The translations under genes were made by a program, and so were the position numbers. Under the pieces are notes generated by a model. It was not told where the DNA came from. It searched no databases and saw only the letters and a list, made by a program, of their open reading frames with translations. From an uncultured Candidatus Binatia bacterium (GTDB taxonomy: Bacteria; Desulfobacterota; Binatia; Bin18), in NCBI GenBank assembly GCA_965214605.1, contig OZ243961.1, positions 862,912 through 926,911 of the forward strand: a DNA stretch of 64,000 bases. The letters are read 5' to 3'. This document shows positions 31,619 to 35,401 of the stretch, one piece after another (the stretch's first letter is position 1; every line of letters begins with the position of its first letter).

Positions 31619-34600
31619 CTAGTTGCAGAGACTCGAGAGCTCTTCTTTCGTAAGAACACGCACGCCACAATTGGCTGCGACGCCAGCGAAGTACATTGGA
31701 ACGACTTCGCTAAACACGAACAGCCCCTCTAGTGATGGCGACGCTTGCTCACCAACGAAACACGCGACCGCCGCGCGGTGCTCGTTCAACAATTTGAGCC
31801 GCACAAGGTGCTTTTTCATTCGATCGGGCTTTCCGTGAACGTTGAGTTCTCCGCGAAAATCGTGCAGCTGGCGAGCAATCTCGGCCATTGTCATTGCCAG
31901 CTCCAAGTCCTTGCACTCTATCGCGAGCACGCGACCCGCCTTCCAGGCAAGGACATCGACATCTCCGTAGTCCTGATCAAGCTTGCGGTTGAGAATCTCG
32001 GTTAGCTTGATCTCCAGTCGGGTCTTCCAACCGAGCTTTTCGAGGTGGGCAGCAACTTCCTTATTAAATTCCTGTCCGCGCCTGTTTTCGGCCGCGCCGA
32101 TCCAGGAGCGCATCCGTCCCGGAGGAAAGTCCTTCGCCTCGTAACCTCCCGTGTAGCAATAGTCCAAGACCTTTCGTATGCCTGCGCGGACCAACCCGGG
32201 CGCAACTAGATAGCGCGGGGATGGATCGTCGAGCCGCACGATAGGTCTGCTAATGAGGGCCAGACGACGCCGAAAGCGCCATGGATACCAGTCTTTGGGC
32301 CGGAATCCATTCGGCGTGGAAGCCCACGTGGAGCGCGGTGAAAGAGAAAAGGCTTTAAGTATCTTTCTAACTACCACTTCATCGAGCGGCTTAGAGCCAT
32401 CGAGAGCAAATATTTCCGTTTCGGTTGTCGAGAAGACCAACTCCTGACGTTTGATCCCCTCATCTTCCAGATTGTCCATGAAGATATGCACGTCATCAAT
32501 GGTAAAGCAGAAAGCTTCTGTCCAAGCCTCACAGAACTCAGGGTCCGGTTCTCCGCGCGCAGCGCCGACTAGCTCTACATCGCGAAAGTGTTGCTCGTAG
32601 GTGTTCGCGCCATGCCGATATCGGATGACACCGAGAGTCTGTCCGTAAGGAGTGACAATGGTCTCATCGAAGTCAACGTCCGTGTGCACATCGCCGAAAG
32701 GAGTGATTCTGATCTCTGGTGCCTTGCTCTGGTATCGGATTGCCTCAGACCATCCGCCAAAGCTGTGCATCTGCATGACCTCTGCGAGGAGTCGGGAGAT
32801 GTCAAGCCGGCCCGGGTGTATCCCGGCATCTTTCGGGCATTCGCACAAAGCCATCTCGACAAGAATTCGCGTGCTAAGCGACGCTGCGTTAAGCCGGGCG
32901 ATCTCTTTCGAAGCCTCCCTCTCGGCGGCCTCCTTGTCATGATGTAAGGAAAGGGCAGCACGCGCGGTCCTGAGCCAGCGGCCGGCCTCGATTTCGACGG
33001 CTTCGTGATTCCGTAGTAGGGCGAACAATAAATGCTCGCGGTTATACTCTTTCAGCTTCGACTGGAGCTCGGTCCAAATGCTGTCAACGAGGCTGTTGAG
33101 GTACTGACAGCAAGGTTCGATTCCCTCTATACGGGGTCCTTCGTCCAGCTTTCTTGACCGCCATCCAAGCCCAATCCGCGATAGCGCGTCATCAATCTTG
33201 GAGATCACAATCGGTTTGCCCCGCGCTTTGCGGGCAACGAAATTCCGAAATTCTCGGGCGGAGAATAGATGCATGTCGCGGGCCCACTGGTCCGGGACGA
33301 TCTGCTGGACGAGGGAATTAAATATCTCGGGCGAATGGTCTTCGCTGGACAATCGGCAGGTGCCTGACACGAATGCTTCGACGAGCAAGCTTTCGGCCAT
33401 GTTCTCGGGTACGCGAAACGAGGCTAGGAAACCGTCGTGAGCTGTGACACGTACAACGTGATCGTCGACGTTGATTTCAAGTAGTGCTTTGGCCTGAGCG
33501 CGCAAGGGAATTGGTATTGCTTGGTCTGTAGGATCCCTATCTTCGAACCGACATATCCATGCAATAGGACCTTCTGGCAATGACCGAATCTTCTCCTCGA
33601 TAACCCTTGCTGAGCGTTCGAGCCAGGTAGCGAGGGCGTGCCACAGTGGGAAATGAAGATCGCGATCCGTCGAGTTTGGTATTTCCACTGTGATCCACCA
33701 ACCGCGTGAGTTGGTTTCGCACACTGCCACGAGCCGTTGCTGGTCGAGGTCGTCGAGACTGACGTAGAGCGGAGCGTTCTCATCTTCTTCGAAAAATGAG
33801 CTCTCATCCAATCGTCGAACTCTGACGGTTCGCTTGTCCCACGTCCGTGCGCGGTGGATATCGCTGCTCTTAGCGCCTTTCTTGCGGACTTCGAGCAGAC
33901 TGTTCGGTTTAACAACGATCATGGACGGCTTGCCAGCTAAGTCGTCCGGCAGCTGGCCGTGAGGGATGAGATGACCTTCGAGTGATTCGGACCAGGCATA
34001 GAGGTTCAGTAGGCCGTTGACATTCATGAGACGAACGCCGATCTGGGCAAGGCGGGCCTGCATATCAAGCAAGCTCCAGAGGTTCAACGGAGAAAAGCTC
34101 GATGCCCAACTCATTGAAATTAGGTCCGGCGCCGAAACTGACTCGACCCGCCAGCGTCGGTCCTCAACGCTTTCGAACTCACACATCATCGGCCGACCCC
34201 AGGGACATAGGACGATCAACGACAATCCCGCGCGAAAGCGTGGCTTGGAAGAGTAAGCCTGCTGTATTTGAGCGATGCTAGTCTTTATCGCTCTACTGAA
34301 GCGACTAGGGTCAGGATTTAGGCCAACCACTCCAGTCAGATCGTAGTGAACGAAACTGTCGACGACAAAACAAATATGTAGCAATCGGCCTTCGTCGACC
34401 CAATCGGCTGCATTGGCGAAGAACACGCCGCCCAGCTTCTGGAATGGCAGCGGTGGCGCGAGGTCACCGCCGAGGAGAGGAACATTTCTGAAGGTCTCTG
34501 CGAATTCGTTCACGTAAACCCGATAGAGTTGCTCTTCGTATCCATTAGATAGGCAGAATTCAATGACCATCCGGCGAACCGCCATTGAGACGGCCGCTGG

Positions 34601-35401
34601 AAGCGTAAGGTAGAGATCACCGCCAATCGCGAGAAGCGGACGCCGCTCGAGCGAGGAATGGCCGTAGCTCTCACGACGCAATCGATCACGATCCTGTCTG
34701 TCCAGGATAAACGTCTCAATGTCTTCGCGTGCGATGCCCAGGCGGGCTAAATCGTTCTCGCGAAAAACAACGCGTTCTTTTGCTATCCCTCCCCGACGGA
34801 CGAGACTCTTGGCCACGCTGCGAATAGGTTTCGTGTCGCCCACAGCGAACGCTGGGATTCCGGAACGTTTGATGGTTTCATCAGACAGTGTGAGAAGAGC
34901 GTACGCCGCACGCCTAAGGCCAGCAAACGGCTCCTGGGACGGCATATTGTCTAGCACATTGATGAAGCATTGTAGATAGAACGCCGAGCTTTCGTACAGC
35001 CCCTGGAATATCAGGAAGTCCCGATTGCTGGTGGACACGCGCGACACGAAGACATCCTCTGCGGGGTCTTCCATTTGGCCAGCCCAACCTTCTCCAAGTG
35101 TTTCGAGCCAAGACGTCAGCGAGCATGTGAGCGGCGTTAGCTCGCCGCGCGCGTTCGCGACGGCGAGATGTTGAAGAAGCTCGAGGCGAACCGCACTTGC
35201 CTGAAACTCAGGCATAGTGAACAGGCCAGCGATAAAAGAGGTGAGCGACGATAGCTTGTACTTCCTTAATGAGCGCGCCAGCTTTCGATGCGCTTTAAAG
35301 AGACGCGAATACGTGGAGCTGGCCAACGGGTCTTCTTCTGGGTGGTACAGACTTTCGATGTGTTTGGTCACAGCTCCCAGTATCAGCTTTAGGCGGTACA
35401 A
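31619..35401 (-). CDS. large hypothetical protein (about 1250-1260 aa) with C-terminal PD-(D/E)xK nuclease-like motif
   Basis: Uninterrupted 3.78 kb ORF. The C-terminus FNKEVAAHLEKLGWKT...DYGDVDVLAWKAGRVLAIECKDLE fits a restriction-endonuclease-like D...ExK core. No GxxxxGK[ST] anywhere. Start uncertain: TTG at 35401 or GTG 30 nt downstream. Confidence 0.8.
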   Translation of the reverse strand: MYRLKLILGAVTKHIESLYHPEEDPLASSTYSRLFKAHRKLARSLRKYKLSSLTSFIAGLFTMPEFQASAVRLELLQHLAVANARGELTPLTCSLTSWLETLGEGWAGQMEDPAEDVFVSRVSTSNRDFLIFQGLYESSAFYLQCFINVLDNMPSQEPFAGLRRAAYALLTLSDETIKRSGIPAFAVGDTKPIRSVAKSLVRRGGIAKERVVFRENDLARLGIAREDIETFILDRQDRDRLRRESYGHSSLERRPLLAIGGDLYLTLPAAVSMAVRRMVIEFCLSNGYEEQLYRVYVNEFAETFRNVPLLGGDLAPPLPFQKLGGVFFANAADWVDEGRLLHICFVVDSFVHYDLTGVVGLNPDPSRFSRAIKTSIAQIQQAYSSKPRFRAGLSLIVLCPWGRPMMCEFESVEDRRWRVESVSAPDLISMSWASSFSPLNLWSLLDMQARLAQIGVRLMNVNGLLNLYAWSESLEGHLIPHGQLPDDLAGKPSMIVVKPNSLLEVRKKGAKSSDIHRARTWDKRTVRVRRLDESSFFEEDENAPLYVSLDDLDQQRLVAVCETNSRGWWITVEIPNSTDRDLHFPLWHALATWLERSARVIEEKIRSLPEGPIAWICRFEDRDPTDQAIPIPLRAQAKALLEINVDDHVVRVTAHDGFLASFRVPENMAESLLVEAFVSGTCRLSSEDHSPEIFNSLVQQIVPDQWARDMHLFSAREFRNFVARKARGKPIVISKIDDALSRIGLGWRSRKLDEGPRIEGIEPCCQYLNSLVDSIWTELQSKLKEYNREHLLFALLRNHEAVEIEAGRWLRTARAALSLHHDKEAAEREASKEIARLNAASLSTRILVEMALCECPKDAGIHPGRLDISRLLAEVMQMHSFGGWSEAIRYQSKAPEIRITPFGDVHTDVDFDETIVTPYGQTLGVIRYRHGANTYEQHFRDVELVGAARGEPDPEFCEAWTEAFCFTIDDVHIFMDNLEDEGIKRQELVFSTTETEIFALDGSKPLDEVVVRKILKAFSLSPRSTWASTPNGFRPKDWYPWRFRRRLALISRPIVRLDDPSPRYLVAPGLVRAGIRKVLDYCYTGGYEAKDFPPGRMRSWIGAAENRRGQEFNKEVAAHLEKLGWKTRLEIKLTEILNRKLDQDYGDVDVLAWKAGRVLAIECKDLELAMTMAEIARQLHDFRGELNVHGKPDRMKKHLVRLKLLNEHRAAVACFVGEQASPSLEGLFVFSEVVPMYFAGVAANCGVRVLTKEELSSLCN

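Follow-up and report, generated by a model that had tools for sequence, protein, structure and literature searches.

A divergent, complete representative of the Upx anti-phage nuclease family in a defence island of an uncultured Candidatus Binatia bacterium

Upx and the closest described systems

Gao et al. (2020; Science 369:1077) were the first to report Upx as a defence gene, and two papers from 2026 describe its mechanism in partly conflicting terms (Zhou et al., PMC13099982; Evans et al., PMC13601566). Here, we compare these systems with a gene on the minus strand (31619–35401) of a 64,000-nt stretch of DNA from an uncultured Candidatus Binatia bacterium; the whole stretch is called the window. 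A sequence-only reading had taken this gene for an orphan, an undescribed single-gene defence factor with a sensor-like N-terminal region and a C-terminal nuclease. We regard it as practically certain that the gene encodes a complete, though divergent, Upx protein, Upx being a family of anti-phage nucleases that consist of a single protein. Residue numbers follow the 1260-codon frame that opens at TTG 35401.

The prototype is SeUpx of Salmonella enterica NCTC6026 (SQI81149.1), whose cryo-electron microscopy structure (9WUF) shows a monomer with an N-terminal domain (NTD), a middle domain (MD) and a C-terminal domain (CTD) (PMC13099982). In that study, SeUpx is a Mg2+-dependent 3′–5′ exonuclease acting at the ends of single-stranded DNA (ssDNA), with double-stranded DNA left uncleaved, and the outcome is direct immunity, not abortive infection (PMC13099982). 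The NTD is described there as a second nuclease, for which D122, D127, R129, E147 and D173 are reported to be essential (PMC13099982), whereas the other study assigns it the role of a sensor (PMC13601566). In the genome-wide co-expression screen of the latter, no PhiV-1 protein other than the large terminase activates SeUpx or HpUpx, and gp16 is non-activating (PMC13601566). HpUpx is 16% identical to SeUpx; both proteins and PbUpx respond to diverse terminases with toxicity upon co-expression, and the ATPase domain of the terminase alone suffices (PMC13601566). AlphaFold 3 predictions show the unfolded ATPase domain threaded through the N-terminal sensor by β-augmentation (PMC13601566). The E1176A substitution in the C-terminal nuclease of SeUpx abolishes defence (PMC13099982, PMC13601566) and also toxicity (PMC13601566); phage defence and its loss on mutation of the ExK glutamate have been shown for SeUpx and HpUpx only (PMC13099982, PMC13601566).

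The window protein shares with SeUpx the length class (1260 versus 1272 residues), a collinear alignment over residues 34–1240, a three-domain fold with a template modelling (TM) score of 0.83, a C-terminal D...ExK triad, the lack of an NTPase and the occurrence as a stand-alone gene in defence islands. It differs in its low identity of only about 30%, in a score beneath the NCBIfam equivalog cut-off and in the NTD, where the β2 motif is D-x-L instead of D-x-R and Ser and Asn replace D122 and E147. HpUpx (Hydrobacter penzbergensis) and PbUpx (Pyrinomonadaceae) belong to the same Upx family. HpUpx is still a terminase sensor with nuclease-dependent toxicity, although its identity to SeUpx is lower than that of the window protein.

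Among other systems, the Avs proteins (Avs2; Avs1–3) are alike in that one large protein combines a sensor for the large terminase of the phage with an effector nuclease, at the N or the C terminus, that is switched on when the terminase is bound. However, the window protein contains neither a STAND NTPase module nor a Walker A motif, Upx and Avs have no sequence or structural homology (PMC13601566), and Upx differs further in being monomeric in the apo state, with recognition predicted to proceed via an unfolded ATPase domain. The Avs models in PADLOC do not match the window protein. Shedu (DUF4263) and Mrr/type IV enzymes are likewise single-gene defence systems in which a PD-(D/E)xK effector is combined with an N-terminal region that varies, and the sequence-only reading had noted a resemblance to them. 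No DUF4263 match is found in Pfam at E ≤ 1, and PADLOC returns Upx only. Likewise, no Mrr_cat, McrB/C or GmrSD model matches in Pfam, PADLOC or NCBIfam, and Foldseek gives no significant structure of either the Shedu or the Mrr/type IV kind. The comparison with Shedu and Mrr is an analogy only.

Family identity, fold and catalytic triad

Three full-length matches identify the protein. The PADLOC Upx profile (PDLC02221) aligns to residues 30–1240 over positions 29–1251 of 1271 with E=1.2e-261, and the NCBIfam model NF042954 ('anti-phage protein Upx', Upx_antiphage) aligns to residues 30–1247 over positions 11–1231 of 1240 with E=7.8e-297. The SeUpx chain 9wuf_A is matched by phmmer with E=2.7e-180, residues 34–1240 being paired with 33–1252 in a single collinear stretch. 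Identity to SeUpx is about 30% overall, 28% over the first 296 aligned residues and 40% in the nuclease core. Relatives are numerous: an exhaustive phmmer search with residues 41–1240 against 1.84 billion cluster representatives retrieved 2,322 clusters at E ≤ 1e-3, of which 797 lie at E ≤ 1e-30. Together with the Upx profile matches, these clusters show that the window protein is not an orphan. A word-indexed search gave 144 homologues, of which the best 120 were analyzed; 118 of those 120 are full length, with identities of 30–74%. The Pfam family PF28173 ('Upx-like') is precomputed on all 120, including the database entry identical to the window protein (P0001). The local Pfam copy, which is older than PF28173, gave no significant match, only noise below threshold (NOD2_WH, ImpA_N, CDC4_D). 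The sequence-only reading had been unable to place the protein in any named family; PADLOC, NCBIfam, PF28173 and 9WUF all place it in Upx, and this is the kind of confident full-length match to a described defence family that the same reading had named as speaking against novelty.

The gene is the longest open reading frame (ORF) of the window, as had been claimed, the next longest encoding 1191, 1118 and 1006 residues. It is also intact: 1260 sense codons run without interruption to the stop codon TAG (31619–31621), which has a chance probability of about 2e-22 at the base composition of the region, and the other two forward frames over the same interval contain 37 and 52 stops. The first possible start codon is TTG 35401; however, GTG 35371 at codon 11 is the more probable start and would give a protein of 1250 residues. 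This start is preferred because the closest relative, the locus L008, carries an ATG at the corresponding codon and because the homologues P0005–P0007 start in that alignment column; P0008 starts a few columns after it. L008 is the one related locus found when a collection of genomes was scanned with a single-protein query, and its source is an uncultured gammaproteobacterial metagenome-assembled genome. The G+C content of the Upx gene is 55% (62% at third codon positions), compared with 62% (71%) for the neighbouring HmaC gene (26078–29434). This lower value is consistent with a separate horizontal acquisition of the cassette.

To analyze the fold, an AlphaFold2 model was calculated for residues 41–1240 from a 65-sequence alignment (model numbering is the window residue minus 40). 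The mean predicted local distance difference test value is 92.4 and the predicted TM score is 0.90. Searched against the PDB with Foldseek, the model has a sole significant match, 9wuf, with E=7.8e-83, TM scores of 0.83/0.82 and 29% identity over 1226 columns; the next match reaches only E=0.2. This lone match fits the published account, in which the Upx fold is without further structural homologues (PMC13099982). The three-domain NTD–MD–CTD fold of Upx is thus present in the predicted structure, and the structural check that had been suggested for a novel protein returned a known one.

The domain limits were transferred from SeUpx by alignment to 9wuf_A, following the limits in PMC13099982. 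The NTD comprises residues ∼1–515 (33857–35401; SeUpx 1–515) and the MD residues ∼516–713 (33263–33856; SeUpx 516–714). The CTD, aligned to 9wuf_A over positions 1075–1252 of the latter, comprises residues ∼714–1260 (31619–33262) and ends with the PD-(D/E)xK core at residues ∼1109–1260 (31619–32077), all on the minus strand. In the model, the α/β core of the nuclease contains strands at 1086–1092, 1107–1114, 1117–1124 and 1183–1190 (model numbering).

The D...ExK core that had been noticed in the last ∼150 residues consists of D1149 (31955–31957) and of E1162 (31916–31918) and K1164 (31910–31912), with Cys between the latter two; both peptides quoted for it are present. These residues, encoded within 31910–31957 on the minus strand, align to D1161, E1176 and K1178 of SeUpx. 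All three columns are invariant, both in the 118 close full-length homologues and in a set of 130 diverse full-length homologues. The last ∼150 residues are therefore a predicted PD-(D/E)xK nuclease with D1149, E1162 and K1164 as the catalytic residues. A motif search of the whole protein found no Walker A (strict or loose), DEAD/H, reverse transcriptase YxDD, methylase DPPY or PLD HKD motif, in line with the earlier statement that NTPase, helicase, methylase and reverse transcriptase motifs are lacking.

Proposed mechanism and the N-terminal site

We consider it very probable, as an overall explanation, that the gene encodes a divergent Upx in which a sensor region licenses the C-terminal PD-(D/E)xK nuclease. 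By analogy with the homologues, Upx would be present as a latent monomer. During infection, the N-terminal and middle region would bind a phage protein, for which the best-supported candidate is the partly unfolded ATPase domain of the large terminase. Once licensed by this binding, the C-terminal nuclease, which depends on Mg2+, would degrade nucleic acid; in vitro, digestion proceeds 3′-to-5′ on ssDNA ends. Phage replication would then be halted, via killing of the infected cell or via destruction of replication intermediates. The published mechanism with a sensor and a single effector is the most likely one for the window protein, and the single-gene sensor–nuclease logic of the sequence-only reading agrees with this architecture, whereas its labels 'orphan' and 'undescribed' do not hold. 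Anti-phage activity, trigger and substrate are in this case inferred from the homologues; the terminase as the trigger of the window protein has, in our estimate, slightly better than even chances.

Several points weigh against this explanation. First, the NF042954 score of 987.3 bits is under the curated equivalog cut-off of 1900, so the window protein is not a close SeUpx orthologue and belongs to the wider family rather than to the narrow equivalog. Second, the trigger is disputed between gp16 (PMC13099982) and the large terminase (PMC13601566), and so is the outcome, between direct immunity (PMC13099982) and cell death (PMC13601566). Lastly, the gene lacks about 1.24 kb of directly adjoining upstream sequence that L008 has, and a simple sigma-70 scan of 31300–36300 found no promoter; with the AbiE genes deleted upstream and no such site, expression of the window Upx is only putative.

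The dispute over the NTD bears directly on the window protein. In the mechanism of Zhou et al., the NTD would be a second, auto-inhibited 3′–5′ ssDNA exonuclease released by an ejected phage protein, for example gp16 of PhiV-1, and both nucleases would degrade phage DNA intermediates directly, so that the cell is not killed. The isolated NTD of SeUpx does cleave ssDNA, the D127A/R129A mutant abolishes defence, gp16 relieves the inhibition of SeUpx, and growth continues at a multiplicity of infection of 3 (PMC13099982). However, gp16 is non-activating in the other study, where only the terminase activates, and this holds also for a homologue that acts on T4, a phage lacking gp16 (PMC13601566).

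To evaluate this alternative, we compared the five reported catalytic positions using the ungapped alignment to 9wuf_A. The equivalents of D122, D127 and R129 are S123, D128 and L130 (35012–35035, minus strand), E147 is replaced by N148 (34958–34960), and D173 is kept as D174 (34880–34882). Thus, two of the five residues are retained and three are substituted. The same columns vary across the 130 diverse representatives. The D122 column has no consensus (Thr in 18, Ser in 17, His in 13 and Ile in 11), and the D127 column is mostly Asn (76, with Asp in 19 and Ser in 15). Arg prevails in the R129 column (89, with Leu in 16 and Lys in 10), whereas the E147 column is divided between Asp (57) and Asn (48), with Glu in only 6, and the D173 column between Asp (70) and Glu (46), with Asn in 9. 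The majority state of the family is N-x-R, and D-x-R as in SeUpx is a minority. Within the clade of the window protein (identity of at least 45%, 32 sequences), D-x-L occurs in 26 of 32 and position 130 is basic in none. Two pairs of control mutants of Zhou et al., K111A/K134A and D135A/N138A, could not be reconciled with the residues of 9wuf_A at these positions (D111, V134, W135 and A138) and were not used.

A different set of acidic residues is conserved in this region. The motif EDPAED (E111, D112, P113, A114, E115 and D116; 35054–35071, minus strand) is located in the loop just before β1, at the NTD pocket of the AlphaFold2 model. Its columns are near-invariant among the 130 representatives, with Glu in 125, Asp in 128, Pro in 116, Glu in 126 and Asp in 115 for the five fixed positions of EDPxED, and E137 (34991–34993) is conserved at its column in 117. 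The same near-invariance of EDPxED and E137 is observed in the 118-sequence set. Since E111, D112, E115, D116 and E137 are placed beside the same β1/β2 elements, and D128 and D174 are kept, an NTD metal pocket is possible, which favours a second nuclease; a metal-dependent function at this acidic pocket is likewise possible. Nevertheless, the reported catalytic residues are not conserved, which makes the two-nuclease mechanism less likely for the window clade and leaves Upx membership unaffected; we consider it unlikely for the window protein. A tentative proposal, which we hold to be somewhat less probable than not, is that the NTD of the window clade, and possibly of most family members, is not the nuclease described for SeUpx and that EDPxED and E137 form the true conserved NTD site. 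This site may be a real metal site or, more likely, part of what binds the trigger and activates the protein, the NTD being a pure sensor.

The AbiE–Upx–gene X block and the surrounding island

The DNA of L008 is about 75% identical to positions 30078–35884 of the window and shows what the neighbourhood of Upx may have looked like before it decayed. In L008, the gene order is AbiEi_3, AbiEii, Upx and then an intact gene of 438 residues, which we call gene X. Directly upstream of Upx in the window lies an AbiEi_3 antitoxin remnant (35496–35907, minus strand) that covers residues 3–139 of 267 with one frameshift, identified by Pfam AbiEi_3_N (E=2e-12), by tblastx to a further related locus (L003) and by tblastn to L008. 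The deletion of ∼1.24 kb, in which window positions 35384–35495 correspond to L008 positions 688–2039, removed the C-terminal half of AbiEi_3 and AbiEii. Judged from this alignment, the remnant is the leftover of an ancestral AbiEi_3–AbiEii–Upx block from which AbiE was lost by deletion. The AbiEi_3–AbiEii pair occupies 271–1991 in L008 and 868–2604 in L003, the locus of homologue P0006 (59% identity). In both, AbiEi_3, AbiEii and Upx lie on one strand, with a gap of ∼50–60 bp ahead of Upx. Their shared order indicates that the arrangement is old in the window clade, and the AbiE antitoxin promoter may co-regulate Upx, which may be transcribed together with AbiE. However, AbiE is upstream of Upx in only these two lineages among 10 related loci; since the other loci examined lack the order, it reflects a linkage and not a defining partnership.

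Gene X was affected as well. Directly downstream of Upx, its copy in the window (30078–31618, minus strand) has decayed, with at least two frameshifts (tblastn matches in frames −2 and −3), and a blastn match of 74.6% to L008 runs continuously across the Upx 3′ end and gene X. A second copy, truncated and frameshifted, is located upstream of the AbiEi_3 remnant (36211–36852, minus strand; blastn and tblastn to L008 gene X). The two copies form direct repeats (30682–31571 and 36220–36900, 71–93% identical) that bracket the cassette of the AbiEi_3 remnant and Upx. In L008, gene X (7892–9208) has an N-terminal 'MLRVAARLGVS...RGYWAK' region and a charged, coiled-coil-like C-terminal tail. It matches no family in Pfam, PADLOC or NCBIfam, and tblastx of the left flank of the window found none at L001–L007, so Upx has no conserved partner in gene X. 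Conversely, Upx of L008 is split at codon 567 by an insertion of ∼2 kb (3723–5697) with an rve-type integrase/transposase ORF (4568–5653, minus strand), and its neighbours are intact, the reverse of the pattern in the window.

These losses raise the question of whether the window gene, although its frame is intact, is an unexpressed or useless relic because the AbiE deletion also took its transcription signals. Four observations fit such a relic: the sequence missing immediately upstream, the negative promoter scan, the decay of both gene X copies and of the AbiEi_3, GajA and BrxL remnants, and the inactivation of L008 Upx by an insertion sequence, which implies that Upx loss is tolerated in the lineage. 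However, the promoter scan used an E. coli-type consensus only and its 0 sites compare with 1.5 expected in shuffled sequences, so it is uninformative; moreover, the 5′ region of AbiEi_3, hence probably its promoter, remains upstream on the same strand. In addition, 1260 codons without a lesion lie beside an equally diverged gene X with several frameshifts within one continuous match. The ratio of nonsynonymous to synonymous substitution rates (dN/dS) between the window and L008 Upx is 0.17 in the N-terminal half and 0.14 in the C-terminal half (only a rough value, as dS is about 1), and every residue that is invariant in the family is retained. This ratio indicates purifying selection on Upx through most of the divergence between the window and L008, and we judge a silent relic to be improbable.

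The wider surroundings confirm that the window is one long defence island, and that Upx lies between an Hma-like module and an AbiE locus, as had been described. To the left, a DprA-like ShosA gene (16015–16917; E=7.7e-92) precedes a complete Hma system (18311–29434), which is convergent with Upx and is composed of the SNF2 helicase HmaA (18311–21886), the DUF1156 methylase HmaB (21896–24916) and the HEPN_Swt1+DUF499 ATPase HmaC (26078–29434), each with PADLOC E=0. The closest genomic homologue of the window protein, P0004 (63% identity, locus L001), is similarly convergent with HmaC. To the right is a second AbiE pair identified by profile matches (36793–38458). Its AbiEi (36793–37650) matches the profile end to end, but only from ORF residue ∼84, and its AbiEii (37643–38458) matches in two separated stretches (∼6–73 and 155–287) with an Arg-rich stretch in the centre. 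AbiEii is probably damaged, judging solely from this split match; an alternative-frame ORF (37785–38114) scanned for AbiEii gave no match, and a double frameshift is unproven. They are followed by a GajA remnant (39030–39386; profile positions 433–545 of 600) and a BrxL remnant reduced to its C-terminal third (39559–40245; 459–668 of 680). An intact RT_UG19 reverse transcriptase of 715 residues (40197–42344; PADLOC E=5.6e-156) overlaps the end of the BrxL remnant and is ∼150 residues longer than the 562-position profile. Farther along are a GmrSD-like gene (GmrSD_N, HEC-05; 44798–46492), an SDH-type ClpP-like protease (51171–52154) and type III CRISPR–Cas genes encoding two RAMP proteins and a Cas10 palm domain (56063–61758). 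The view that the surroundings of Upx are decayed is correct for the gene X copies and for the AbiEi_3, GajA and BrxL remnants, but Hma and AbiEi (36793–37650) look intact. No Avs1 and no second Upx, the associations reported in PMC13601566, were recognized in the window when its large ORFs were inspected.

A similar context is found for the homologues, which had been expected to lie near defence genes. Recognizable defence genes occur within 8 kb of Upx at eight of the 10 related loci and include type I restriction–modification, McrBC, SIR2+DUF87, CBASS-like SMODS+patatin, GmrSD, Gabija-like AAA_15+UvrD, AbiE and Hma. Conjugative or mobilizable elements carry one of these eight loci (L012) and a further one (L011), and L009 shows neither such an element nor recognizable defence genes. 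As the immediate neighbours vary among the 10 loci, Upx is a single-gene system with no conserved partner. The remaining alternative, an undescribed single-gene factor outside all named families, could appeal to the silent local Pfam copy, to the label 'hypothetical protein' carried by every homologue with a source name among the best 120 of 144 and to the score under the NCBIfam naming threshold, but it is refuted by the full-length PADLOC, NCBIfam, PF28173 and 9WUF matches in sequence and fold, besides the 2,322 clusters, and retains virtually no probability.

In summary, the protein appears unannotated because it falls below the NCBIfam naming threshold and its named homologues are all called hypothetical. 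As the Upx family is already named and has a cryo-EM structure and two mechanistic studies, the finding has little consequence for discovery; it shows that Upx proteins at ∼30% identity to the Salmonella prototype seem to be orphans unless PADLOC, DefenseFinder or a recent Pfam is used. The two related blocks illustrate the turnover of defence islands, AbiE and gene X having been lost from the AbiE–Upx–X block in the window and Upx having been lost through an insertion in L008. For the family, the conservation pattern, with an invariant C-terminal triad, variable reported NTD residues and a near-invariant EDPxED motif, bears on the 2026 dispute over whether the NTD is a nuclease or a sensor. 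If true, this comparative result would help to settle the choice between the dual-nuclease/gp16 and terminase-sensor models.

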